Shown here piece by piece: positions 2,200 through 15,088 of a stretch of 64,000 bases of DNA. Under the pieces are notes generated by a model. It did not search any database. It was not told the origin of the DNA and saw only the letters and a program-made list of their open reading frames with translations. Numbering within the stretch: the stretch's first letter is position 1; every line of letters begins with the position of its first letter. This DNA is from Alphaproteobacteria bacterium (GTDB lineage Bacteria > Pseudomonadota > Alphaproteobacteria > SPJN01). A program made the translations under genes and the position numbers. Where the stretch lies: positions 637,213-701,212 of the forward strand of contig CBDDKB010000002.1 of assembly GCA_965229935.1 (NCBI GenBank). The letters run 5' to 3'.

Positions 2200-3252
2200 A
2201 TGCAAGAAAGCTTCGGTGAATCTTGGCGCGCGGCCCTTCTGCCGCGTGACGCGACATTGAAACAGGCAATACAGAACCTGTCTGACAGCTCACTTCAAAT
2301 CGTGATGGTTGTTGATGATAATGGTCATCTTGCGGGAACTGTAACAGATGGGGATGTGCGGCGCGGGTTGATCCGCGACGTGGCATTAACCGATCCGGTA
2401 TCGGTCGTGATGAACGACAATCCATTTGTTGTACCGCCCGATATGCCGATCGGGCAGGTCAAGGCGATCATGCGGGCCAATCGATTTCACCAAATTCCAG
2501 TGGTTGAAGAAGGGCGCAAATTATGTGGCCTGCACCTGTGGGATGATCTGGAAAGTTCCAGCGCGCTTGATAATCAATTTGTGATCATGGCAGGTGGCGA
2601 GGGCAAGCGGCTGCGTCCGTTTACCGAATCTTGCCCCAAGCCCATGTTGGAAGTCGCAGGTAAGCCGATGCTGGCCCATATTGTTGAACGGGCGGTGGCA
2701 GAGGGGTTTACCAACATCACCATGTGCTTGAACTATTTGGGTCACATGATTGTTGACTATTTCGGCGATGGGGCCGCGTGGGGGGCGACCATCACCTATG
2801 TGCACGAAGAAGAAAAACTAGGCACAGCAGGTGCGCTTGGCTTACTTGACCCTGTGCCTAACCTACCATTCATCGTCACCAATGGCGATGTGATGACAGA
2901 TATTGCCTATTTGGATTTGCTCAACTTCCACAATTCCCACCGGGCAGATGCGACCATGGCTGTCCGCCAGATGGAGTGGCGGAATCCTTATGGGGTCGTC
3001 AAAACCAATGGGCTGACTATTACAGGTTTTGAGGAAAAGCCCGTGCAACGCCACCATGTTAATGCTGGTATTTATGCGCTTGAGCCATCGGCGCTGTGTC
3101 ATCTTAAGGCCGGTGACTTTTGCGACATGCCCACATTGTTCACTGATGTCAGCAAGGCAGGCGGGGCGGCCATTGTTTTTCCCATGCATGAACCTTGGAT
3201 GGATGTGGGGCGTCCTGACGATCTGGAAAAAGCGCATGACTTTCAGCGATAG
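2200..3252 (+). CDS. ptmE: CBS-pair plus sugar-phosphate nucleotidyltransferase, PtmE-like (GDP-sugar branch of legionaminic acid synthesis).
   Basis: N-terminal CBS-like region, then the NTP-transferase motif VIMAGGEGKRLRPFTESCPKPML. Same architecture as the C. jejuni PtmE-type enzyme. Confidence 0.75.
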   Translation: MQESFGESWRAALLPRDATLKQAIQNLSDSSLQIVMVVDDNGHLAGTVTDGDVRRGLIRDVALTDPVSVVMNDNPFVVPPDMPIGQVKAIMRANRFHQIPVVEEGRKLCGLHLWDDLESSSALDNQFVIMAGGEGKRLRPFTESCPKPMLEVAGKPMLAHIVERAVAEGFTNITMCLNYLGHMIVDYFGDGAAWGATITYVHEEEKLGTAGALGLLDPVPNLPFIVTNGDVMTDIAYLDLLNFHNSHRADATMAVRQMEWRNPYGVVKTNGLTITGFEEKPVQRHHVNAGIYALEPSALCHLKAGDFCDMPTLFTDVSKAGGAAIVFPMHEPWMDVGRPDDLEKAHDFQR

Positions 3253-4177
3253 ACAGATGCGGGCATTGATTGTCGGCTTTGGGTCTATCGGGCAACGTCA
3301 TGCCGACATACTGACGTCGCTGGGTTTACAAGTTTCGGCTGTAACCGGGAATCAAGAGGCGGCAGTTCCCCGCTTTGCGTCTATTGCCGATGCAATCGCG
3401 GGCGGCCCGTTTGACTATACGGTGATTGCCTCATCGACAGCGCGACATATGTCAGATATTCAGGCTTTGGCAGGCGCAGGATTTGAAGGCGCTGTGTTGG
3501 TTGAAAAGCCCATCAATGAAAATGGCCAAGAGCTGCCGGATAATAAGTTCCGTCAGGTTTGCGTTGGCTATAATTTGCGCTTTCATCCCCTGTTACAGGA
3601 ATTGCGTCATAGCCTGTCTGGTGAGGCGGTACAGCAAATCACCATACATTGCGGGCAGCATTTAGCAGATTGGCGTCCGGGCCGCGACTTCAGGACAACA
3701 TATTCAGCAGATCAGGCGCAAGGCGGCGGTGTGCTGCGGGATTTGAGCCATGAACTTGACTATCTGTTATGGTTATTTGGGCCTTGGAAGCGTGTTGCTG
3801 CGATTGGCGGGAATTTGGGGGTGCTGGATATTGATGCTGATGAAGCATGGTCGATCCTACTAGAAATGGAAAGCGGTGCGGTCGCGACCGTCACCGTGAA
3901 CTATTTCGACAGACCTGCAAAACGATCACTGCAAGTGACAACGGCAAACAACACATTATGCGTGGATATGATCCAAAACTCATTTGCCGTAGGGGGAGAA
4001 CCGCCGAGAGACTATGTGGTCGATCGCAATATGACTTATCAGTCGATGCATACTGCGATTTTGTCAGGGGATAGGGATCATATTGCAACTGCGCGTGACG
4101 GACAGGCTGTGATGGGCCTGATCAATGCCATTGAACAAGCGGCGCAAAAGGGCGAATGGGTTAAAACATGTCTATGA
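3236..4177 (+). CDS. Gfo/Idh/MocA-family NAD(P)-dependent oxidoreductase, PtmF-like.
   Basis: Rossmann start MRALIVGFGSIGQRHADIL. The ATG at 3236 overlaps the stop of the upstream gene. The track ORF start at 3029 is an out-of-frame overlap artefact. Confidence 0.7.
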   Translation: MTFSDRQMRALIVGFGSIGQRHADILTSLGLQVSAVTGNQEAAVPRFASIADAIAGGPFDYTVIASSTARHMSDIQALAGAGFEGAVLVEKPINENGQELPDNKFRQVCVGYNLRFHPLLQELRHSLSGEAVQQITIHCGQHLADWRPGRDFRTTYSADQAQGGGVLRDLSHELDYLLWLFGPWKRVAAIGGNLGVLDIDADEAWSILLEMESGAVATVTVNYFDRPAKRSLQVTTANNTLCVDMIQNSFAVGGEPPRDYVVDRNMTYQSMHTAILSGDRDHIATARDGQAVMGLINAIEQAAQKGEWVKTCL

Positions 4178-4875
4178 TTTGTACAATCTGTGCGCGGGGC
4201 GGGTCAAAGGGTGTGCCGGGCAAAAATGTCAAGGACCTGAACGGTCAACCGGTCATCGCCTGGACCATTGCGCAGGCCAAACAAAGCCAGCTTTTTGAAC
4301 TTATAGCGGTTAGTAGTGACAGCCAGGAGATTTTGGATGTGGCGTCGGCAAGCGGCGCCGATCATTTGGTTCGACGGCCAGATGAAATGGCTACAGATAC
4401 TGCGGGTAAACTGCCGGCAATCGCGCATTGTCTAAAAAGTGCTGAAGCCTATCTTGGCAATACAGTATCGGCATTTGTAGATTTGGATGCGACCTCACCC
4501 TTGCGGAAGGTTGACGATATAGTGGGGGCAGTGAATCTGTTTAATCAAACAGGAGCCACCAATGTGATTACTGGCAGTCCGGCGCGCCGGTCACCCTATT
4601 TTAATTTGGTCGAACAAGGTGAAGGCGGCACAGTTCATCTCTCTAAGCCTATGGAAAGTGTGTTGCGGCGGCAGGATGCGCCTGTTTGTTTTGATATGAA
4701 CGCGTCGATTTATGTTTGGCGTCGTGATGAGTTTTTAAAAGACCCCAAGGTGTTTTATCCGGATACTAGATTATTCGAAATGCCGGAGGATCGCTCCTTC
4801 GATATTGATACGCCGCTTGATTTTGAGATTGTGAAATTACTGCACGCGAGACAATTGCGTGGAAAGGAAGGCTGA
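4168..4875 (+). CDS. neuA: Acylneuraminate cytidylyltransferase family (CMP-nonulosonic acid synthetase, NeuA/LegF-like).
   Basis: ICARGGSKGVPGKNVKDLNGQPVIAWTI is the CTP_transf_3 N-terminal signature. 235 aa. Confidence 0.85.
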   Translation: MSMICTICARGGSKGVPGKNVKDLNGQPVIAWTIAQAKQSQLFELIAVSSDSQEILDVASASGADHLVRRPDEMATDTAGKLPAIAHCLKSAEAYLGNTVSAFVDLDATSPLRKVDDIVGAVNLFNQTGATNVITGSPARRSPYFNLVEQGEGGTVHLSKPMESVLRRQDAPVCFDMNASIYVWRRDEFLKDPKVFYPDTRLFEMPEDRSFDIDTPLDFEIVKLLHARQLRGKEG

Positions 4876-4877
4876 CC

Positions 4878-5717
4878 ATGACGGATATGTTGGAAAAGGG
4901 TCATTTCAGCCGCGCGCAGTTCGATTTGTCCGGCAAGGTTGCGCTTGTTACAGGGGCGGCGGGCATATTGGGACCCTATTTCTGCCATGCTTTGGCAGAT
5001 CATGGCGCCACCATCGCTGTCATCGATATCGATCAGGCGAAGGCCAAGCAATTGGCAACGGATTTGGAGCGGACATACAAATGTCGTGCCGCTGCATTTG
5101 ATGTCGATGTCTCTGACGCAGGCGCGGTGCGTCAGCTTGTTGAGGCGGTGGAAAGCGAATTGGGGCCTGTTGATATTTTGCACAATAATGCGGCGTCAAA
5201 GGGAAAGGCCTTAGATGCCTTTTTTGAAACGACAGAGTTATTTGATGCTGCTACCTGGAAAGAGATTATGGCCGTCAATCTGGACGGTGCATTCTTTATG
5301 GCGCGAGAAATTGGCGGGCGCATGGCACAGCGCGGCGGCGGCAGCATCATTCAAACAGCGTCTATCTATGGTGTTGTCGGGCCTGACCAGCGGATTTACG
5401 AAGGATCAGACTATCTTGGTCGGCAGATCAACACACCCGCAGTCTATAGCGCATCAAAGGCAGGCATTGTGGGGCTGACGAGGTATCTTGCAACCTATTG
5501 GGGGGATAAGGGCGTGCGGGTGAACACACTAACGCCCGGTGGTGTCTCAAGCGGCCAAAATGATGTGTTCGAGGCCAAATATTCTGCCCGCATTCCCTTG
5601 GGGCGCATGGCACAACCTGATGATATGACGGGTGCGTTGATCTTTTTGGCCTCTGACGCCAGCCGTTATGTTACGGGGCAAAATATCATTGTTGACGGCG
5701 GCTTGACCGCGTGGTGA
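4878..5717 (+). CDS. Short-chain dehydrogenase/reductase (SDR), PtmA-like.
   Basis: TGAAGILG cofactor motif, an NNAA motif and the YSASK catalytic motif. Confidence 0.8.
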   Translation: MTDMLEKGHFSRAQFDLSGKVALVTGAAGILGPYFCHALADHGATIAVIDIDQAKAKQLATDLERTYKCRAAAFDVDVSDAGAVRQLVEAVESELGPVDILHNNAASKGKALDAFFETTELFDAATWKEIMAVNLDGAFFMAREIGGRMAQRGGGSIIQTASIYGVVGPDQRIYEGSDYLGRQINTPAVYSASKAGIVGLTRYLATYWGDKGVRVNTLTPGGVSSGQNDVFEAKYSARIPLGRMAQPDDMTGALIFLASDASRYVTGQNIIVDGGLTAW

Positions 5718-7085
5718 TCAGTGGCGGTGATAAACCGTTAACATGGTTTCAACCGCCTGTTTCCATGCGCGATCACGATGCGGAAATTCCTTGTCATCCA
5801 AGTTGAGAATGGGATCGACAAGGCCGGGCCATAATAGGTGTTCTTTTTTTGCGACGGCAGCTACCAATTTATCGTGGTCATAGTCGAAAGCAAAAAAGCG
5901 CTGCATGACATCGGCATGATCGGCCGTCCATTCAAATGCGCCAGGCAGGTCGCGATACCATGCTAAGCCGAATGTGATTGTTGGTTTGCGGGCTTGCAAA
6001 CACTCCCATCCAGCGGTGCCGCAAATATTGGCAACGCCGACAGAATTTTTGATCAGCGCATGTGAGCTATATTCCGATCTGATTAATTTGACCGAAGGGA
6101 TAGACAAGATACGCTTGTAAAAACTTGCATCCCGCATATAGGCGGTCTGCAATGGGTTTTCCTTGATATAGATGGAAAAGTCATCTGGCAGGTGTCGGGC
6201 CAATTGTTCGACCGCCAGCGCCTGATCTACAAACAGATCGCCGCCTGTGATGTCGGTTGTCATCTCAGGCTGCAGGTGAAGGGGGACATAGATAAACTTT
6301 TCACCCTCAACCGGGTCACTGTAATAATGGTCCGGTAAATTGTGAACTTTGTACACACGGTAAATGCGCGTCAATTTATTGTAGGATTTGCGTGCGCCAT
6401 TCCAGTTCCCGGTGAGGGGGGCGATCAAATATTTCAGGCTTGTGTTTAGAATGCGGCTTGCGATCTGTCCTACCAGCTTTGTCTTGCTGACGCGTTTTAG
6501 ATTGCGAAATAGAAACGGAATTTCCAGATCATATTTGATTTCCAGCGTGCCGTGATCATCTGTTTCTGGGCCGCGAATACCTAGATCTTCTATCGATTCA
6601 GCAATCCACATATAGTCTGAAAACATCGTGGTTGAGGGCACGATAGTCCTGATTCCCATCGCCTTGCATAGGTGATAAAGAATTTGGGTCGAGCCAATAT
6701 GCGGCACATTGTTGAACAGTACGGTCGAGATGCGATCTTCGTTCAGAACCTTCCAGAAATATTGCAGCCCCGCCTCAAAGTGATTTTCTACATCAAGCCA
6801 GCTTTCCCGGCGACTGACGGTGCGGCTGAACAGGCGGAAATGCGTGCGCCTGAAATAGCGAAAACCAGTTTCGCGTGCCTTCGCGGCAATCGCTTCGTCC
6901 AATGTCGGGGCGAATACGTCATCGTCTGCGATGCCCGTTAAAACCCTAAAAGGGGTGAAGGTGACGCCTTCTACAGGTTTCTTGGGCTGCGCGGCACCCA
7001 GCAGATACACGCGCTTGACAGGCATGCCGCCTTCAATCAGTTCGTGAACCTGTTGTTCATAGAACCCCATCAATAAAACTGACAC
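5718..7085 (-). CDS. Putative capsule-biosynthesis-like (KpsS/LipB-type) glycosyl/nonulosonyl transferase.
   Basis: 455 aa. The segment FIYVPLHLQPEMTTD resembles the HxQPE-type motif of Capsule_synth family proteins. It is the only minus-strand gene inside the nonulosonic acid locus. Assigned from motif memory only. Confidence 0.4.
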   Translation of the reverse strand: MSVLLMGFYEQQVHELIEGGMPVKRVYLLGAAQPKKPVEGVTFTPFRVLTGIADDDVFAPTLDEAIAAKARETGFRYFRRTHFRLFSRTVSRRESWLDVENHFEAGLQYFWKVLNEDRISTVLFNNVPHIGSTQILYHLCKAMGIRTIVPSTTMFSDYMWIAESIEDLGIRGPETDDHGTLEIKYDLEIPFLFRNLKRVSKTKLVGQIASRILNTSLKYLIAPLTGNWNGARKSYNKLTRIYRVYKVHNLPDHYYSDPVEGEKFIYVPLHLQPEMTTDITGGDLFVDQALAVEQLARHLPDDFSIYIKENPLQTAYMRDASFYKRILSIPSVKLIRSEYSSHALIKNSVGVANICGTAGWECLQARKPTITFGLAWYRDLPGAFEWTADHADVMQRFFAFDYDHDKLVAAVAKKEHLLWPGLVDPILNLDDKEFPHRDRAWKQAVETMLTVYHRH

Positions 7086-7298: not shown

Positions 7299-8621
7299 AT
7301 GCCGATGCTATATCCCAGCCGCCGCGAGATCGATTTTGCCTCCTTCACGACGGACAATCCGAATGAAGCGAAGTATGGCCTGCCGACCGAGGTGCGCTAT
7401 TGCAGCCGCTGTGTGATTTCCAATCAACGGCCTAATTCCGCGGTTGAATATGCCCACACCAAGGAAAGCAAGAAAGAGACCATCAATTTCGATGATGAGA
7501 ATATTTGCGATGCCTGCAAGGTGGCGGAACAGAAGCACAAAATAATCAATTGGGACGAACGGCGCGCCCAATTGGAGGAGCTTTGCGCAAAGCATCGTCG
7601 TACTGACGGCCATTATGATTGTGTTGTGCCCGGGTCGGGCGGCAAGGACAGTTTTTATGCTGCCCATATGTTGAAGCATGAATTTGGGATGCACCCGCTG
7701 ACGGTCACCTGGGCACCCCATATCTATACGGATTGGGGTTGGAAAAATTTCCAATCATGGATTCACGCAGGTTTTGACAATCTTTTGACAACACCAAATG
7801 GGCGTGTGCACAGGCTGTTGACGCGGCTTGCCGTTGAAAACCTGTTTCATCCGTTTCAGGCCTTTATGTTTGGGCAAAAATCATTGGCGCCCAAAATGGC
7901 TATTTTGCATGACATTCCGCTGGTCTTTTTTGGGGAAAATGAGGCTGAATATGGCAATCCTGTCGGCGACACCGAAACGGCCAAACGCGATTGGCGCTAT
8001 TTTACAGCGGATGACAAATCAAAAATCTTTTTGGGCGGCACGTCCATTGAAAGTCTGACCAATGATTTCGGGGTGGAGCCTTATGACCTTCAACCCTATT
8101 TGCCTGCGGACCCTGCCCAGATCGAAGAAAAGAATGTCGAGGTTCATTATCTTGGCTACTATCTGAAATGGCATCCGCAAAGCTGCTATTACTACTCTGT
8201 CGAACATGGCGGGTTTCAGGCATCACCAGAAAGAACGCCGGGTACCTATAGTAAATATAATTCAATCGATGACCGAATTGATGACTTTCACTATTACACG
8301 ACCATGATTAAGTTCGGGATCGGACGGGCAACCTATGACGCGGCGCAGGAGATCCGGTCAGGCGATATTGATCGAGATGAAGGGGTGGCCCTTGCGCGGC
8401 GCTTTGATGGAGAGTTCCCCGAACGGTTCGCGGATGAAATTTTTGCCTATCTTAGCCTGCCGAAAAAAGAATTTCCCGAGGCATCAAAAATGTTTGAACA
8501 GCCGATTATTGATCGAGCCTATTTTGACAATTTGACAGATTCATTCCGGTCGCCCCATTTGTGGAAGTATGAGGACGGCAAGTGGTCCTTGCGCCATTCG
8601 GTTTGGGAGGGGCAGGATTGA
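7299..8621 (+). CDS. N-acetyl sugar amidotransferase (PP-loop ATPase, WbpG/PseA/PtmG-like).
   Basis: PP-loop motif VPGSGGKDS and an N-terminal Cys-rich segment (CSRCVISN...CDAC). Followed by HisF/HisH paralogs, as in acetamidino-sugar loci. Confidence 0.8.
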   Translation: MPMLYPSRREIDFASFTTDNPNEAKYGLPTEVRYCSRCVISNQRPNSAVEYAHTKESKKETINFDDENICDACKVAEQKHKIINWDERRAQLEELCAKHRRTDGHYDCVVPGSGGKDSFYAAHMLKHEFGMHPLTVTWAPHIYTDWGWKNFQSWIHAGFDNLLTTPNGRVHRLLTRLAVENLFHPFQAFMFGQKSLAPKMAILHDIPLVFFGENEAEYGNPVGDTETAKRDWRYFTADDKSKIFLGGTSIESLTNDFGVEPYDLQPYLPADPAQIEEKNVEVHYLGYYLKWHPQSCYYYSVEHGGFQASPERTPGTYSKYNSIDDRIDDFHYYTTMIKFGIGRATYDAAQEIRSGDIDRDEGVALARRFDGEFPERFADEIFAYLSLPKKEFPEASKMFEQPIIDRAYFDNLTDSFRSPHLWKYEDGKWSLRHSVWEGQD

Positions 8622-9382
8622 AACCCAATGTCCGTCTGATTGCACGGCTTGATGTTAAAGGGCCGAACCTGATCAAAGGTGTCCATCTTGAAGGGTTGCG
8701 CGTGTTGGGTGATCCGCAAGAGTTTGCGCACCGTTACTATGATCAAGGCGCGGATGAGTTGATCTATATCGACTTGGTTGCCAGTCTATATGGCCGTTCT
8801 AAACTAACCGAAATTGTCCGTAAAACCGCTTATGATGTGTTTGTGCCCTTGACAGTGGGTGGGGGTATTCGGTCGGTGGACGATGTGCGCGAATTGCTGA
8901 TGGCTGGTGCGGATAAGGTGGCGATCAACACCGCGGGTGTGCAGCGCCCTGACTTGCTGAACGAAGTTGCCACCAAATTTGGCAGCCAGTGCCTTGTCCT
9001 GTCGGTCGAGGCCAAGCACCAGACTGGTGATCATTGGGAAGTTTATACTGATTGTGGTCGCGAACGATCCGGCCGCGATGTGGTTGATTGGGTGAAGGAG
9101 GCCGTTGATCGCGGTATCGGCGAAATCCTTCTGACCTCAATCGACAATGAAGGTACAGGCAAGGGTTATGACCTTGACTTGATTGCGCGTGTCGCAGAGG
9201 TTGCGCCCGTGCCTTTGATAGTTAGTGGCGGGTTTTCCAAGACATCACATATTGTGGATGCCGTCTCGAACGGGGCGGATGCCTGCGCCGTTGCCGATGC
9301 ACTGCATTACAATAAAATGGAACTGGGTGAGATCAGATCTGAAATGCTTGCTGCCAATATCCCGACAAGGGTGACGTCATGA
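8582..9382 (+). CDS. hisF: Imidazole glycerol phosphate synthase cyclase subunit paralog (HisF-like, WbuZ type).
   Basis: IARLDVKG...VHLEGLRVLGDP...PLTVGGGIRS...SGGF motifs. The start is uncertain: ATG at 8582 or in-frame TTG at 8618, which overlaps the upstream stop. Confidence 0.85.
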   Translation: MVLAPFGLGGAGLKPNVRLIARLDVKGPNLIKGVHLEGLRVLGDPQEFAHRYYDQGADELIYIDLVASLYGRSKLTEIVRKTAYDVFVPLTVGGGIRSVDDVRELLMAGADKVAINTAGVQRPDLLNEVATKFGSQCLVLSVEAKHQTGDHWEVYTDCGRERSGRDVVDWVKEAVDRGIGEILLTSIDNEGTGKGYDLDLIARVAEVAPVPLIVSGGFSKTSHIVDAVSNGADACAVADALHYNKMELGEIRSEMLAANIPTRVTS

Positions 9383-10038
9383 ATATTGTGATTGTTGATT
9401 ATGGCATGGGCAATCTGTTCAGTGTGGAACGCGCTTTGCAAAGCATCGGGGTGGAGCGGCCCAAAACAACCAGTGATCCTGACAGGCTGGCCGAAGCTGA
9501 ATTTGTTATTCTGCCGGGTGTCGGCGCCTTTGGCGATGGGATGGCGGGGCTGACCCAAAACGGTATGGCAGATGCGCTGCGCGACCATTGTAATCAAGGC
9601 AAGCCATTGCTTGGTATCTGTCTGGGCATGCAAATGCTTGTTGAGGCTAGTGAAGAAAGTCCCGGTGTCGCTGGCCTTGGATTGATCAGGGGACAGGTCA
9701 GGCGGATTGATTCAACAACTGAAAATGGCGCCATGCGTAAGGTGCCTTATGTCGGTTGGGCTAAAATGGCAGTCAATCCATCATGGGGCGGTTCAGATTT
9801 TGCGTGGCCTACAGAAATGATTGCGGGCGAAAGCTTCTATTGCGTCCATTCATTTCAGACTAAGCCTGTAGACGAAAGCTGCACATTATCGAGTTATGAT
9901 TATGACGGGCTTTCTGTTACAGCCGCAATTGCACGAGACAATATTATCGGCACACAGTTCCACCCCGAAAAAAGCGGCAAAAAAGGTTTGGCACTTTTGC
10001 GAGAGGTGTTGGTCACTGCGGGGGTGAGCCTGTCATGA
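9379..10038 (+). CDS. hisH: Glutamine amidotransferase subunit paralog (HisH-like, WbuY type).
   Basis: IVIVDYGMGNLFSVERAL, GICLGMQ (catalytic Cys) and QFHPEKS. ATGA overlap with the HisF-like gene. Confidence 0.85.
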   Translation: MNIVIVDYGMGNLFSVERALQSIGVERPKTTSDPDRLAEAEFVILPGVGAFGDGMAGLTQNGMADALRDHCNQGKPLLGICLGMQMLVEASEESPGVAGLGLIRGQVRRIDSTTENGAMRKVPYVGWAKMAVNPSWGGSDFAWPTEMIAGESFYCVHSFQTKPVDESCTLSSYDYDGLSVTAAIARDNIIGTQFHPEKSGKKGLALLREVLVTAGVSLS

Positions 10039-11153
10039 GGCAGTTTCTTCGTAATCTGTTTTATAAGACCGACGAAACGGAACACTTAATAGGCGCCTTG
10101 GCAGACAAAACGGGCGTGTCAGTGCCGTTTTCCAAAGTCGATGAGGTCATTAAATCCCATCCGCAGCCAGCCCTGTTTGTAGATCGTTTGAACGCGGTTT
10201 TGTCGAGCGAACTGAAGGGGTCATACAAAAAGCTATCAGAGGTCGAGTTAAAGGGGCCACTTGGGCTGCCCAGTTTCGGTTCCGAAGATCTTGACCGGAT
10301 GAGCGCCATATTGGCCTTGCTATTTCCCAAGACTGCGCAGAAGCGGTCAACCCTGTTTGATGACGCGTTGGTGAATGATACCTGCGCGCGCCTTGAGGAA
10401 CAGGGTTATGCTGTCCTGCCGGCAGTGATTAGTGATGAAAAGATTCATTCCTTGATCGACATGTTGGGTAGTTCTAAGCATCGTTTTTTGGAGCTTGAAA
10501 CCAAGGCTGTTCATCTTGGTTATGATCCCGAAGATGCCTTGGCATCGAAGTCCAACACAGTTTTGATCGAAAGTCATGATCTGTTGAATGCGGAAGAAGC
10601 TGTGCGGGATATCGCCTATGATCCCGGAATGCTTGAAATTGCGCAGACCTATCTGGGGGCAGCGCCGATCCATGTGCACACGAATGCGTGGTGGAGTGTT
10701 AACCACAGGCAAGATTATCAGGCGCTTGCAGCGTCGGCGCAGCAATTTCACCAAGACCGCGGTTTCGTTAAATTTCTGAAAGTGTTCTTGTACTTGACCG
10801 ATGTTGGTGAAGAAAATGGTCCTCATGAATATGTGGCAGGATCAGTAAAAGATTTTCGAAAAGCAGTAAAACGACGGCATAAATCCGGAAAACGCTATAC
10901 GCGCGAGCATATGGTCAAAACATTTGGCGAGGAACGCGTTGTCAGTATGGTTGCGCCAAAGGGTACGATGATTTTTGAAGATACTTATGGCTTTCATCGT
11001 GGCGTGCCGGTGCAATCAGGGCATAGGTTCGTCATGGAACTGATTTACGCGAATTCGCTTTTTTGCAGCCAAGTTGTACGCTTTACAGATGCGCCTACAA
11101 ACGTCCCCGTTGACAAGGCGCAAGCCAGCCGTCTTTTGGCAAATTATGATTAA
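10035..11153 (+). CDS. Putative Fe(II)/2-oxoglutarate dioxygenase, PhyH (phytanoyl-CoA dioxygenase)-like C-terminal domain. The N-terminal ~190 aa are unassigned.
   Basis: FHQD (HxD) followed by LYLTDVGEENGPHEYVAGS and a distal FHRG His. ATGA overlap with the hisH-like stop implies co-translation. Confidence 0.55.
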   Translation: MRQFLRNLFYKTDETEHLIGALADKTGVSVPFSKVDEVIKSHPQPALFVDRLNAVLSSELKGSYKKLSEVELKGPLGLPSFGSEDLDRMSAILALLFPKTAQKRSTLFDDALVNDTCARLEEQGYAVLPAVISDEKIHSLIDMLGSSKHRFLELETKAVHLGYDPEDALASKSNTVLIESHDLLNAEEAVRDIAYDPGMLEIAQTYLGAAPIHVHTNAWWSVNHRQDYQALAASAQQFHQDRGFVKFLKVFLYLTDVGEENGPHEYVAGSVKDFRKAVKRRHKSGKRYTREHMVKTFGEERVVSMVAPKGTMIFEDTYGFHRGVPVQSGHRFVMELIYANSLFCSQVVRFTDAPTNVPVDKAQASRLLANYD

Positions 11154-11164
11154 GGGGCAAGACG

Positions 11165-12049
11165 ATGGCTGAACCTCTATTTATTTTGGGCTATCCGAAG
11201 ACGGCGAGTTCCAACTTGGTCGGCATCTTGAACTGTCATCCCGACATTTTCATGCTTTATGAAACCAACTTACGGTCATCGGCAATGTCACGTTATGCGC
11301 AGCAATTGGTTGATGCGTGGCCTGAAACCCGAGGGCTTGTCTATGCGGAGCAGCCGATTGGCAAGCCATATGAGAAGCTTGGCGGCATGCTGCGTGAGAA
11401 ATATGGGCGCGATTACCGCTATGTCGGCGACAAGTTTGCAGGAGAACCTGCCGCAGATTTTACCGGCCTGCCAGGTAAGGTGATGTTCAGCTTGCGGGAT
11501 ATCCGAACATGGCTTGCGAAATCGTCTGTGCAATCCATCTACCAGATTGAAATGGACATCGTTCCGATTGCAATAGATTTTACGGCATTCTTGATGCGCA
11601 CGCATTTGATGCCCCACGGCATGCGGGTCAAGATGGAAGACCTGCTGGCTGATGACACAAGCCTGTTTAAGAAGATTGACGATTTTCTCGATCTAGATTT
11701 ATCCGGTCATGCCGCCCGGTGGTGGCAGGATGTGGGGAAATATAAATCATCTGATCCTAAATCATTGCAAAATTGGGCAAAAGGCCACCCATCATCAACG
11801 ACTAAACCAGCGGGCGAGGACACTGCCGCGGAGTTGGCTGATCACCCCTTTTGGGACGAAATTCTTCCCTTGTTTGACAAATATTATCAGGCGGACAACT
11901 GTTTCAGCGCCGCTGACGTTGAGGGGGATCTAAAGGCGCTAAGGGGGATAGGCGCAATGTCTCCCGTTCGGCTTGACGAAGCCTTTGTCGAAATCACATC
12001 CCATTCAATTGCGAAAAAATCAAAGAGCCGCCTGTTTAAATGGAAATGA
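11165..12049 (+). CDS. Putative sulfotransferase-family protein.
   Basis: FILGYPKTASSNLVGILNCHPDI resembles the 5'-PSB loop (xPKxxxTxL...HP). SLRDIRTW resembles the 3'-PB RDxRD segment. Starts 11 bp after the upstream gene. Confidence 0.45.
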   Translation: MAEPLFILGYPKTASSNLVGILNCHPDIFMLYETNLRSSAMSRYAQQLVDAWPETRGLVYAEQPIGKPYEKLGGMLREKYGRDYRYVGDKFAGEPAADFTGLPGKVMFSLRDIRTWLAKSSVQSIYQIEMDIVPIAIDFTAFLMRTHLMPHGMRVKMEDLLADDTSLFKKIDDFLDLDLSGHAARWWQDVGKYKSSDPKSLQNWAKGHPSSTTKPAGEDTAAELADHPFWDEILPLFDKYYQADNCFSAADVEGDLKALRGIGAMSPVRLDEAFVEITSHSIAKKSKSRLFKWK

Positions 12050-12154
12050 TTATTCCATTTCCTGTTCGTTGCGGCGGTTGATCGGCGTCTTATCGGTAAA
12101 GCTAAGGGGCCAGGTGCTGTACTGCGCCTGATCAGCTCGGATGATAGCGCATGA

Positions 12155-12459
12155 TCAAGTGCCTGTGGGATTGCCGCGATTGGCGGCCTCGTTCGGGGGA
12201 TAGCCAAAATAGCCTTTAAAGGCCTGCGTAAAGTTTGCGGGCTGTTGATAGCCGACACGATATGCGATTTGGGCAATCTGGATATCACCCGCCTTTAACA
12301 GGCGCATCGCCTCCTCCATGCGTAGTTTCAGGGTAAAGTTCATCGGACTGATGCCATATTCCTGCCGGAACCCGGCTGTCAGCTTTCGGCGGCTGACGCC
12401 AACGGCGCGCGCAATTTCGTCAAGGTTGGGTGGTTTGCGATGTCTAACGTCAGGCCCTA
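12155..12459 (-). pseudogene. AraC-family transcriptional regulator remnant. Only the C-terminal HTH domain is left; the N-terminal domain is replaced by the IS end.
   Basis: Reverse-strand translation reads RHRKPPNLDEIARAVGVSRRKLTAGFRQEYGISPMNFTLKLRMEEAMRLLKAGDIQIAQIAYRVGYQQPANFTQAFKGYFGYPP. Homology stops at the IS terminus (12460). Confidence 0.7.
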
Positions 12460-12563
12460 TGGAACAGTCTTAGGGTAATTGTATCAGGAGGATTTCTGGC
12501 TCATCGTAACGACGTAGGGGGTGAGCAGGCAGCGCGCCATTGGTTCGAGCGCAACTGCGAACA

Positions 12564-13064
12564 ATGAGACAGAAATCCAACAATCATAAAGATGCCGCCG
12601 AACGGACCGTGAAGGACATTCGCAGGCGGACCCGTAAAACCTATTCAGCCGAAGAGAAGATCAGGATCGTATTGGCCGGTCTGCGCGGTGAAGAAAGCAT
12701 CGCTAGCCTGTGCAGGCAGGAAGGCATTGCCGAGAGCCTGTACTATTCCTGGTCAAAGGAGTTCCTTGAGGCTGGAAAGCAGCGTCTGGCAGGTGATACA
12801 GCCCGTCAGGCCAGCTCCCCTGAGGTGAAGGCGTTGAAGTCAGAAGCATCCGCCTTGAAAGAGGCTGTTGCGGACCTGACGCTTGAGAACCGTTCGTCGG
12901 GAAAATGGTCCCCCGGACCATTTTCTGATCCTCCTCACCCCAAAAAAAGCATGCTGGGGGGTGAGGCCGACAGCGCGCCACTGGTTCGAGCGCAAGGCCG
13001 AACGAGTACGACGAATGAGATATTCCGCATCAGAAAAGCTAGAGATCATCAGAACAGTGGATAA
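12564..13064 (+). CDS. IS3-family transposase OrfA (HTH_Tnp_1-like), atypically extended.
   Basis: RKTYSAEEKIRIVLAGLRGEESIASLCRQEGIAESLYYSWSKEFLEAGKQRLAGD plus a coiled-coil region. It contains an in-frame hairpin-forming insert and an A7 tract before the KKSML motif. Confidence 0.65.
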   Translation: MRQKSNNHKDAAERTVKDIRRRTRKTYSAEEKIRIVLAGLRGEESIASLCRQEGIAESLYYSWSKEFLEAGKQRLAGDTARQASSPEVKALKSEASALKEAVADLTLENRSSGKWSPGPFSDPPHPKKSMLGGEADSAPLVRAQGRTSTTNEIFRIRKARDHQNSG

Positions 13065-14014
13065 CAGCCATTTGCCCGCCAAGCGGACGCTGGACATGCT
13101 GGGAATACCCAGAACCACCTTCTATCGCTGGTATGATAAGTATCTGACATTGGGGGCGGATGGGCTGGAAGACCGCTCTCCCACACCCGGTCATGTCTGG
13201 AACCGTATTCCTGACACTATCCGTGGTGAAGTCGTTGATATGGCCCTGGAAGAAGATGCGCAGGACCTATCACCAAGGGAACTGGCAACGCGGTTTACCG
13301 ACCAAAAAGCCTATTATGTCTCGGGATCAAGTGTTTACCGCATTCTCAAGGCCCATGACCTGATCACCAGCCCCGCTCACACGGTTATCAAGGCTGCTGA
13401 TGAGTTCAGGGACAAGACCACTGCGATCAACCAGCTTTGGCAGACGGAATTTACCTACTTCAAAATCACAGGCTGGGGCTGGTATTACCTCAGCACCATT
13501 CTTGATGATTATTCCCGCTATATCATCTCATGGCGCCAAGTTGACAGAAGAGGGCAGCACGATGAAGGCAGGTGATGTCATGAACACATTGGATGATGCC
13601 ATTGCCGCATCAGGCTGTGACAAGGTTCATATTGCCCACAAACCCACCTTGCTCAGCGACAATGGCAGTTCCTACATCTCGGGACAGCTGGCTGATTATC
13701 TCAGGGCCAATCACATGCGCCACATTCGGGGTGCGCCGCATCACCCTCAAACACAGGGCAAGATTGAACGCTGGCATCAAACCCTGAAGAACAAGATCCT
13801 GCTCAACAATTATTACCTACCCGGTGATCTGGAACAGGAAATCGGTAACTTCATCAATTACTACAATCATCAGCGCTATCACGAGAGCCTGAACAATGTG
13901 ACACCGGCTGACGTGTACTTCGGGCGTCACCACGCCATTCTGAAACGAAGAAAGGAGATTAAAGACAAGACCATCAAAGCACGCCGCTTGATCCATCAGA
14001 CAAAAGCGACTTAA
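13015..14014 (+). pseudogene. IS3-family transposase OrfB (rve integrase core), interrupted by a 1-nt frameshift near 13534-13538.
   Basis: Frame 1 reads MRYSASEKLEIIR...YLSTILDDYSRYIISW and then terminates. The sequence continues in frame 2 as KLTEEGSTMKAGDV...LLSDNGSSYISG...HPQTQGKIERWHQTLK...YNHQRYHESL. Confidence 0.75.
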
Positions 14015-14069
14015 CATCAATCAACAGAGCCAGAACCCTCCTGATCAGACACAGATAATCTGTCCCAAT

Positions 14070-14654
14070 TTATATGAAAACGGACACCTCTTTAAGGGGC
14101 TTGATATTCTGGTAAGGGTTCACAAAGTCATAGCGGCTCGCAGCTTCAGTCATCACCATACGTAGGGGCGTCATGATGTGATTGACCCGCGTTGCTGGTA
14201 ACTGTTTGCCTGTTTCCGGGTTTTCCGCAGCAATGCTTGCTCGAAACTTCAATATATCCGTTTTATTGATTGCAATGACGGGTACACCACCAAATCGGCT
14301 CAACAGATACTTCTGGAAGTTGATCGTGGTCGTATCGATATATGACTGCCGCCACTCGACTTTCTTCTCGTCTATCTATTGCTGGGCAAAGTCAGAGAAG
14401 AGGGGAGCATCTGCATTCAATGCAGCTGCACGTTGGTCGAGTTTATGGAATTCCTCGGCACGACGACTGTTCGGGAAGTATTTACCGTAGTCAAACGTTC
14501 CCAGAACAATCTCGGCTTCAAGACGCTTTAGGATTGTTTGCAGGCGCCGACGATGCTGAGGTAAGTCGTTGAGACCAGTAGCCTCACGACAGCGTTGCTT
14601 CTTATACCTGAAGTCAACGTGAAGCATGTCACCGCGTTTGGTAATTGAAGCCAT
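14070..14654 (-). pseudogene. Tyrosine recombinase (phage-type integrase) remnant. Only the N-terminal arm-binding and SAM-like region is present.
   Basis: MASITKRGDMLHVDFRYKKQRCREATGL (DUF3596-like arm domain). An in-frame TAG lies at 14376-14378 (QQ*IDEKKVEWRQSY). The reading frame ends 3 nt from the IS terminus, and the catalytic domain is absent. Confidence 0.75.
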
Positions 14655-14806
14655 GACGTAATCTGTTAAGCGGTGGCCATAGGCAACATGGCAGGCGCGC
14701 AAGATTCCATGTCCTGTTCAATCTGTTCCCAGATATAAGGGACTTGCGACCGCCAAAGGGGTGGATGTAATGAACGCCTTCAATCAGCACGGAATCTTTA
14801 AGTGAG

Positions 14807-15088
14807 TTGCGGATGGTCCGCGGGGCATACTTGATGCGGGCTGCTAGAGCACTGGTAAGAATGTCTCAAGATGAACTGGTAGAACTCTCTGGCGTATCAA
14901 TCGCAACAATAAGACGATTAGAGGCCAGGGATGGACCGTTACCCAGAAGGTCATCAAGCGGACAAAGAATTATCGAAGTGCTCGAGGGAGCCGGGGTTGT
15001 CTTCACGCCGAGTGACAAGCAAAAGGGGCAGGGCGTTCGCCTAGCAAAGCGAGGCCAATCTCCAAGCGCGTGGCGTCAAAACCTGTAA
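14807..15088 (+). CDS. Small XRE-family helix-turn-helix transcriptional regulator.
   Basis: ARALVRMSQDELVELSGVSIATIRRLE...EVLEGAGVVF. Divergent from the integrase remnant. The start is TTG at 14807 or ATG at 14813. Confidence 0.6.
   Translation: MRMVRGAYLMRAARALVRMSQDELVELSGVSIATIRRLEARDGPLPRRSSSGQRIIEVLEGAGVVFTPSDKQKGQGVRLAKRGQSPSAWRQNL

Follow-up and report, generated by a model that had tools for sequence, protein, structure and literature searches.

Two adjacent genes were analyzed in a stretch of 64,000 nucleotides (the window) from contig CBDDKB010000002.1 of an alphaproteobacterial genome assembly (GCA_965229935.1). The first (10035..11153, plus strand) encodes a protein of 372 residues and the second (11165..12049, plus strand) a protein of 294 residues. 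The results presented here indicate that the former is an Fe(II)/2-oxoglutarate (2OG) oxygenase of the PhyH family and the latter a divergent sulfotransferase dependent on 3'-phosphoadenosine-5'-phosphosulfate (PAPS). The genes are the 3'-terminal members of an operon ordered wbuX-wbuZ-hisH-phyH-sulfotransferase, which closes a cluster for a nonulosonic acid (NulO) of the legionaminic acid (Leg) type, and the two enzymes probably tailor the product of that cluster in the cytoplasm.

The gene junctions were read directly from the sequence. The ATG of the PhyH gene (10035) overlaps the TGA of the hisH-like gene (10036-10038) to form ATGA at 10035-10038. The TAA stop of the PhyH gene lies at 11151-11153 and is separated from the sulfotransferase ATG at 11165 by a spacer of 11 bp (11154..11164, plus strand) containing a GGGG Shine-Dalgarno-like run 7 nt 5' of that ATG. 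Both open reading frames, the overlap, the gap and every motif quoted in the initial annotation were found as described there, as was the position of the pair as the last genes before an AraC fragment and an IS3-type insertion sequence (IS) element. Scans for terminators and promoters gave no signal above chance.

Results

The 372-residue protein matched Pfam PhyH (PF05721) with a score of 46.9 bits versus a cut-off of 22, the match extending over residues 121-330 and profile positions 2-209 of 213; the dioxygenase domain is encoded by 10395..11153 (plus strand). The sequence contains the motifs FHQD (H239 and D241), ENGPHEY and GFHRG (H321). The residues corresponding to the iron and 2OG ligands, with roles assigned by analogy, are H239, D241, H321 and R331 (H239-x-D241 at 10749-10757, H321 at 10995-10997 and R331 at 11025-11027), and all four are invariant across 11 homologues. 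The AlphaFold model (mean predicted local distance difference test score, pLDDT, 84.7) retrieved proline hydroxylase H11, SnoN/SnoK, OkaE and GriE in Foldseek searches, with E values of 3.6e-11 to 1e-9 and target template modeling (TM) scores (TMt) of 0.53-0.64. A profile-versus-PDB search agreed with these matches to PhyH-type hydroxylase folds. Common to the protein and to H11, GriE, EctD and SnoK/SnoN are the double-stranded beta-helix fold, the HxD...H triad and a C-terminal Arg, at sequence identities of 11-18%; judged from PDB titles, SnoK and SnoN modify the nogalamycin aminosugar. KdoO was considered as an alternative family and was rejected, PhyH being the sole Pfam family at E ≤ 0.1. 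The Pfam score, the invariant residues and the fold establish securely that the 372-residue protein is a bona fide PhyH-family Fe(II)/2OG oxygenase, the family to which it had been assigned initially.

The protein differs from the characterized enzymes by an extra helical N-terminal part of ~110 residues. Residues 1 to ~120 (10035..10394, plus strand) had no Pfam or NCBIfam match. In the model, helices span residues 2-123 and the N-terminal part is wholly helical to ~105-120, an arrangement common to homologues P0002-P0006. The unassigned N-terminal half, put at ~190 residues in the initial annotation, is thus shorter, at ~105-120 residues, since the Pfam match starts at residue 121 and the helices of the model end at ~105-120.

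The 294-residue protein (11165..12049, plus strand) was assigned from its fold, motifs and family profile, the Pfam match being below threshold. The sequence contains GYPKTASSNL, HPDI and LRDIRTW. The AlphaFold (AF2) model had a pLDDT of 92.7 and a predicted TM-score (pTM) of 0.89, and a Foldseek search returned 37 matches at E ≤ 0.001; with one exception among the 50 listed, these were PAPS sulfotransferases. The best E value was 6.7e-7 and TM-scores reached 0.51. The top matches were the tyrosylprotein sulfotransferases TPST1/2, the olefin-synthase and CurM sulfotransferase domains, Stf9, Teg12/14 and cytosolic SULTs. Searching the PDB with a profile built from 21 members of the family recovered TPST1/2 at E = 1.6e-5, so that TPST1/TPST2 (PDB 5wrj, 3ap1-3, 9wwe) were the best matches by both fold and profile. 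In the profile alignment the family sequence GaqKtGtS falls on GVPRSGTT of TPST and E33 on the second Glu of GEET, which places K12 on Arg78 and E33 on Glu99 of human TPST2, an enzyme with catalytic residues Arg78, Glu99 and Lys158 (PMC10951654).

Features common to the protein and TPST include a five-stranded alpha/beta core, the strand-loop-helix that binds the 5'-phosphosulfate (5'-PSB) after the first strand, an identical spacing of 21 residues for K12/E33 versus Arg78/Glu99, and a family 'xEDL' sequence aligning with 'YEQLV' of TPST. The 5'-PSB motif reads G9-Y-P-K12-T-A-S-S16 (loop at 11189-11212) and lies between a strand (3-9) and a helix (15-23) of the model; the candidate base E33 is encoded at 11261-11263. 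Across 44 family sequences, G9, K12, T13 and S16 are conserved in 38-41 and E33 in 43, and conservation in 38-44 of the sequences also extends to G88, K90, R111, D112, W116, E158, D159, W186, W187, H208, S210 and others. The RD(I/L)RTW motif (RDIRTW at 11495-11512), in which R111 and W116 are present in 44/44, is positioned after a strand (105-110) and before a helix (113-118), outside the residue-level TPST alignment. The order and spacing of K12-E33-K90-R111-S210 resemble those of the TPST2 series Arg78-Glu99-Lys158-Arg183-Ser285, in which only the first two pairs are aligned and the correspondence of K90 with Lys158 and of S210 with Ser285 is by spacing only. The protein differs from TPST in identity (13-18%, with TM-scores of 0.35-0.5), in a Lys rather than an Arg as the basic residue of the 5'-PSB motif, and in belonging to a bacterial cytoplasmic glycan cluster rather than the Golgi; the substrate is almost certainly a sugar and not tyrosine.

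Genes for PAPS synthesis accompany several homologues. The genes cysD and a cysN/cysC fusion are directly upstream of the family member in a Patescibacteria metagenome-assembled genome (MAG; L010) and at two further loci (L076, L077). The fold, the TPST alignment of the catalytic residues and this cysD/cysNC adjacency provide good support for a divergent PAPS-dependent sulfotransferase, and the identity first proposed for the 294-residue protein was upheld on these grounds in spite of the Pfam score. In the genome under study, cysD-cysNC is ~66 kb away and adjoins a Wzc/Wzy/Wza-type polysaccharide locus. This region, outside the window (G000:C2:714640-726000, L098), has cysD and the cysN/cysC fusion directly beside Bac_transf, Wzc-like, Wzy-like and Wza genes, an arrangement that fits production of a sulfated exopolysaccharide; that glycan could also accept sulfated NulO.

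The distribution of the sulfotransferase family was determined by an exhaustive profile search of 1.84 billion representative proteins, which recovered 157 proteins at E ≤ 1e-10 and 116 at E ≤ 1e-30. Past the 157, only distant sulfotransferases were found, showing that the family is small and sharply bounded. Named members occur in Alphaproteobacteria, Planctomycetota, Thermodesulfobacteriota, Patescibacteria, Balneolota, Chloroflexota and an Asgard archaeon MAG. The 44 sequences analyzed were drawn from genomes, metagenomes and a class-level genome search and comprise 42 loci plus the window gene, one locus (L087) having two copies. Flanking DNA was scanned by tblastn with the proteins of the NulO cluster, and lineages were collapsed at 90% identity to 38. 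NeuB and/or CMP-NulO synthetase was nearby in 17 of the 38 lineages and a Capsule_synth gene only in three more. When restricted to loci with at least 8 kb of flanking DNA, 19 of 28 (68%) had NeuB, CMP-synthetase or Capsule_synth. Several of the rows scored as having no context are short contigs nearly identical to rows with NulO context.

The fraction of DNA within 10 kb of NulO genes, which is an estimate and not a computed control, would be ~1-2% even where a genome has two NulO loci; on that estimate the enrichment of NulO genes beside the sulfotransferase is very large. When NulO context was mapped on the family tree, well-supported branches forced at least six separate origins. Hosts with this context include Alphaproteobacteria (the window, L001/L063 and G215), Planctomycetota, Thermodesulfobacteriota and a Promethearchaeota MAG. 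The G215 locus contains WbuX, a CBS-nucleotidyltransferase, NeuB and CMP-synthetase, and another locus (L006) contains two NeuB and two CMP-synthetases, one of which is fused to a HAD-type hydrolase. Among the cluster genes used as tblastn queries, NulO genes and Capsule_synth were the only recurring partners besides PAPS genes. A Pfam tally of the neighbors of 12 loci found no other sugar-pathway family in more than four. Such tallies for the sulfotransferase and PhyH loci were heterogeneous, dominated by TPR and methyltransferase families and shadow open reading frames, and were replaced by the targeted tblastn scan.

Several family members are unusual in architecture or setting. One is a 780-residue TPR-methyltransferase-sulfotransferase fusion (L014:3694-6033), and other fused members (P0041, P0043, P0046, P0061, P0067, P0073 and P0109) are 490-800 residues long with the sulfotransferase domain at either end. 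Two diverged paralogues are encoded within 4 kb at L087 (6678-7505 and 10001-10882) with NeuB nearby, for which two sulfation positions or two acceptors would fit. The member in the Promethearchaeota MAG (JAEOTA010000081.1; L013:10001-10825) has 36% identity and is beside CMP-synthetase-like and weakly Capsule_synth-like genes, which reflects horizontal transfer or else mis-binning of the contig. At L085:554-2245, on a short contig from a metagenome, a family sulfotransferase gene and a distantly related PhyH-like gene (26% identity) converge.

Relatives of the PhyH protein are fewer, a word-based search of 5.8 billion proteins returning 11, one of which is syntenic at 75% identity (L001). PhyH proteins of this type are encoded in 31 of 401 genomes of the class; the sulfotransferase is present in two of the 401 and coincides with a PhyH-like gene only in the genome of the window. 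Several homologues are in glycan loci. At L004 (35% identity) the gene is flanked by Capsule_synth (36% identical to that of the window) with NeuB and, on the opposite side, by an AT3-SGNH O-acyltransferase gene. At L050, CMP-synthetase is on one side and Capsule_synth plus NeuB on the other; L039 has PseB-like, DegT and CMP-synthetase genes near the PhyH gene, and L055 has NeuB nearby. The PhyH gene of L042 is the last of an operon WbuX-HisH-WbuZ-formyltransferase-methyltransferase-PhyH. A maximum-likelihood tree placed the window protein in a clade (support 97/96) with L001, the homologues of a methyltransferase/hydrolase trio, L040, L004 and L039, the sister branch consisting of L041 plus L042. 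Glycan contexts therefore surround the window PhyH protein in the tree, which gives moderate support to a link with NulO that is much weaker than that for the sulfotransferase.

The trio is a conserved arrangement at L002/L003:9082-12045, L058 and L059, in which a divergent 276-residue methyltransferase, a full-length PhyH protein with the helical N-terminal part and an alpha/beta-hydrolase are encoded together. Its neighbors are acyl-CoA, carotenoid-oxygenase (RPE65) and Coq4 genes in alphaproteobacterial MAGs.

The pair belongs to a single cluster of 16 genes comprising the first 12 kb of the window and 4.3 kb upstream in the genome. The order is Capsule_synth, GDP-sugar 4,6-dehydratase-like (LegB-like), DegT, NeuC, NeuB (446-1555) and PglD-like acetyltransferase; then CBS-nucleotidyltransferase, Gfo/Idh/MocA oxidoreductase, CMP-synthetase, short-chain dehydrogenase/reductase (SDR) and a second Capsule_synth (minus strand, 5718-7085); and finally WbuX, WbuZ/HisF, HisH, PhyH and sulfotransferase. 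The genes neighboring the pair match enzymes of the Leg type in Pfam and NCBIfam, and the cluster is of the legionaminic-acid type with a module for forming an acetamidino group. That module comprises a WbuX-type N-acetyl sugar amidotransferase, the first gene of the operon ending in the pair (7299..8621, plus strand; TIGR03573, 389 bits), a WbuZ/HisF-like cyclase subunit (8582..9382, plus strand; TIGR03572, 268 bits, and Pfam His_biosynth) and a HisH-like glutaminase subunit (9379..10038, plus strand; TIGR01855, 192 bits).

The second Capsule_synth gene (5718..7085, minus strand; PF05159, 38.8 bits) encodes a KpsS/KpsC-like protein that is a candidate nonulosonyl transferase, and its homologues adjoin sulfotransferase or PhyH homologues in L004, L005, L006, L050 and other loci. 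The first gene of the cluster, also of the Capsule_synth family (471 residues), is upstream of the window (G000:C2:632883-634298; L062:13884-15299). These two are the only Capsule_synth genes in the genome. The presence of two such transferases in a cluster without Wzx, Wzy or an ABC exporter suggests that the product is a short NulO oligomer or cap, which is attached to a glycan synthesized elsewhere. The listed reading frame for the Gfo/Idh/MocA oxidoreductase (3029-4177) begins at a TTG that falls inside the gene before it; translation probably starts instead at the ATG that yields MTFSDRQMRALIVGFGSIGQRH, immediately after the stop at 3252.

A second NulO operon, of the pseudaminic acid (Pse) type with PseB/C/F/G/H/I-like genes, lies outside the window (G000:C2:856200-871000, L099) and is common to a congeneric genome. 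A canonical Sulfotransfer_3 gene 8 kb downstream of its NeuB locus was not counted as NulO-linked because amidohydrolase, epoxide-hydrolase and TonB-receptor genes intervene and it is paired with YeeE/YedE-like sulfur-transport genes.

The initial annotation had left room for separate acquisition of the pair, the last genes before the IS/integrase remnant. An assembled contig of 62.9 kb (L001) and a metagenome contig (L063) contain this cluster, including the pair but lacking the IS, the gene order being kept in both and the 4-bp hisH/phyH overlap in L001. A blastn comparison of the window with L001 was collinear over 7304-11940, broke after the sulfotransferase gene and resumed at 14682-14840 (L001 12508-12667). 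Since homology resumes past the IS, the intervening segment (12050..14681, no strand assigned), which consists of an AraC fragment, an IS3-type element with transposase-like reading frames at 12540-14014, and an integrase fragment, was inserted beside a pre-existing pair and is outside the tailoring module. The identity of the pair to L001 (PhyH, 75%; sulfotransferase, 83%) is within the 68-93% found for the other cluster proteins, and its GC content of 0.49-0.51 equals that of the wbuX-hisH genes. This synteny, the collinearity and the matching divergence and GC content rule out the pair as cargo of the IS. WbuX, PhyH and sulfotransferase had no match in three other genomes of the same order, from which the cluster appears to be accessory. 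The L001 cluster is without the Gfo/Idh/MocA oxidoreductase (PtmF-like) and the SDR (PtmA-like), which occupy 3237-4171 and 4848-5723 in the window, and collinearity breaks exactly over these two genes, so the Leg derivatives made by the two clusters probably differ.

Discussion

The PhyH protein and the sulfotransferase are soluble and without signal peptides, and their cosubstrates (Fe2+, 2-oxoglutarate and O2 for the former, PAPS for the latter) are cytoplasmic, so that both should act in the cytoplasm before export. The interpretation that we favor, and consider probable, is that the sulfotransferase O-sulfates a legionaminic acid residue or its glycan and that the PhyH protein hydroxylates the same product. 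The acceptor would be CMP-Leg derivatives or the nascent chain built by the Capsule_synth transferases, with PAPS supplied by CysD-CysNC. In a TPST-like active site, as suggested by the sequence, E33 would deprotonate the acceptor hydroxyl, K12 would stabilize the leaving phosphosulfate and R111 would be part of the 3'-phosphate motif. The NulO residue itself would most likely be sulfated; since NulO genes are the only recurring partners besides those for PAPS, we infer that the acceptor is the NulO residue or its CMP derivative. Legionaminic acid is a 3,5,7,9-tetradeoxy sugar, and in such sugars the only free positions are O-4 and O-8, which are also shared by the sugars of the other cluster types beside which the family occurs. 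The PhyH protein may hydroxylate a sugar C-H (C-9 or C-3) or the N-acyl or acetimidoyl group, and its product may create or complement a sulfation site, in which case hydroxylation would precede sulfation. In the window, L001 and L042 the PhyH gene lies behind WbuX/HisH/WbuZ, a hint that its role may be tied to the amidino-bearing intermediate. A more specific proposal, advanced tentatively, is that the sulfotransferase is a member of the first such family in prokaryotes, one of NulO O-sulfotransferases comprising ~150 clusters, and that here it acts with the PhyH protein to produce a hydroxylated, O-sulfated 5-acetamidino-legionaminic acid, a sugar of which the literature searched gave no description.

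The initial annotation had proposed that the pair performs an undescribed NulO tailoring step. For the sulfotransferase this is strongly backed by the 19 of 28 loci in several phyla; for the PhyH protein the support is moderate, deriving from clade members in NulO/WbuXYZ operons and offset by the surroundings of its nearest non-syntenic relatives. Those relatives (41-46% identity; L002/3, L058, L059) are in the conserved methyltransferase/PhyH/alpha-beta-hydrolase context with lipid-metabolism neighbors, and this is one of several results that weigh against the favored interpretation. The Pfam Sulfotransfer_3 score of 25.2 bits is below the cut-off of 27 and covers only residues 4-42 (39 residues), so that placement among the sulfotransferases, as a divergent branch, depends on fold and motifs. 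A scan of NCBIfam found no model for either protein. About one-third of the well-flanked sulfotransferase loci are without a NulO gene in reach, and full-text literature searches found no structure of a sulfated legionaminic or pseudaminic acid. The pair is also not a conserved module: the genes are adjacent only in this lineage and in the distant convergent case (L085), so that a coupled two-step reaction is not general to the family.

The alternative that survives best, although we judge it rather doubtful, is that both enzymes tailor the cluster product independently, with sulfate placed on the pre-existing O-4 or O-8 and an unrelated PhyH reaction such as hydroxylation of the N-acetimidoyl or N-acyl group or amine oxidation. 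Sulfotransferase homologues are present in NulO clusters without PhyH, and PhyH homologues without sulfotransferase. Moreover, the PhyH gene is translationally coupled to the amidotransferase genes and is also downstream of WbuX/HisH/WbuZ in the independent L042 locus. KanJ, a PhyH-family enzyme, catalyzes the oxidative deamination of an aminosugar. No result speaks directly against independent tailoring, which differs from the favored interpretation only in the absence of hydroxylation followed by sulfation, an order that is itself conjectural.

It is unlikely, and somewhat more so than independent tailoring, that the sulfotransferase modifies another part of the glycoconjugate (a neighboring hexose, or a lipid or protein acceptor) rather than the NulO. 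Capsule loci are known in which PAPS genes and sulfotransferases serve ordinary sugars, as in Cobetia marina KMM 1449, with cysD/cysNC/cysQ and a sulfotransferase in the capsule locus (PMC11766843). Homologues without a NulO gene in reach (L009, L015, L016, L017, L060 and L069) and the L014 homologue fused to TPR and methyltransferase domains are also consistent with another acceptor. Against it, NeuB, CMP-synthetase and Capsule_synth were the only recurring neighbors among the tblastn queries, and in the Pfam tally of 12 loci no other sugar-pathway family exceeded four.

Sulfation as activation of a leaving group, in the manner of CurM and olefin synthase, in which the hydroxyl introduced by PhyH would be sulfated and eliminated to yield a deoxy or unsaturated sugar, is highly improbable. 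The olefin-synthase and CurM domains (4gox, 4gbm) are among the best matches by TM-score (0.47-0.51), and such routes combine an oxygenase with a sulfotransferase; however, the cluster is without a thioesterase or eliminating partner, the adjacent oxygenase is absent in most family members and matches of the TPST type score at least equally. There is equally little to recommend the pair as unrelated cargo, whether an IS/integrase passenger or genes of small-molecule metabolism, as its position at the cluster edge adjoining the IS3 element and integrase remnant, the non-glycan context of the closest non-syntenic PhyH relatives and the absence of the whole cluster from three genomes of the order are outweighed by the intact arrangement in L001 and L063, identities and GC content typical of the cluster, the stop/start overlap with hisH and the tie of the sulfotransferase family to NulO loci across several phyla.

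The favored interpretation, cytoplasmic hydroxylation and O-sulfation of the cluster product, has partial precedents. The only enzymes described as sulfating a NulO (sialic acid) that were found are the vertebrate sialate O-sulfotransferases WSCD1/WSCD2 (PMC9304399), and no NulO sulfotransferase of prokaryotes came up in full-text literature searches. Provided that the substrate is correctly assigned, WSCD1/WSCD2 would be functional analogues for which only a shared superfamily is claimed; they differ as eukaryotic Golgi membrane proteins with WSC domains. Bacterial polysaccharide sulfation modules follow the same logic of PAPS genes plus a sulfotransferase within a surface-glycan locus, and NodH/NodPQ of rhizobia is a sulfation module of this kind. 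The sulfotransferases of those modules fall in well-modeled Pfam families and sulfate hexoses or Nod factors, whereas the present family is without a full-length model and tracks NulO genes. For the oxygenase, KdoO is an Fe(II)/2OG hydroxylase that acts at position 3 of 3-deoxy-D-manno-octulosonic acid (Kdo) to make Ko on lipid A, after the Kdo transferase step. It belongs to a different protein family and is a conceptual analogue, PhyH genes being found repeatedly beside the Kdo-transferase-like Capsule_synth genes. Neither the PhyH protein nor the sulfotransferase matched NCBIfam or Pfam models of the described Leg/Ptm and Pse enzymes.

The sulfotransferase half of the finding is a solid and fairly novel lead, consisting of a new family without a profile model and with a probable new substrate class. 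In granular sludge, NulOs and sulfated glycoconjugates co-occur in the extracellular polymers and the sulfotransferases are stated to be unknown (PMC10483923). If the proposed function is correct, the family would open a genetic approach to the sulfated polymers resembling sialic acid that chemical analyses have detected in environmental biofilms, and the PhyH protein would extend NulO chemistry by a possible hydroxylation of C-H bonds. From a sulfotransferase family that tracks NulO genes in phyla far apart, a new class of strongly anionic surface sugars can be predicted, for which the family would serve as a marker gene. Sulfated NulOs could influence phage and host recognition as well as the binding of cations and the properties of the biofilm matrix.

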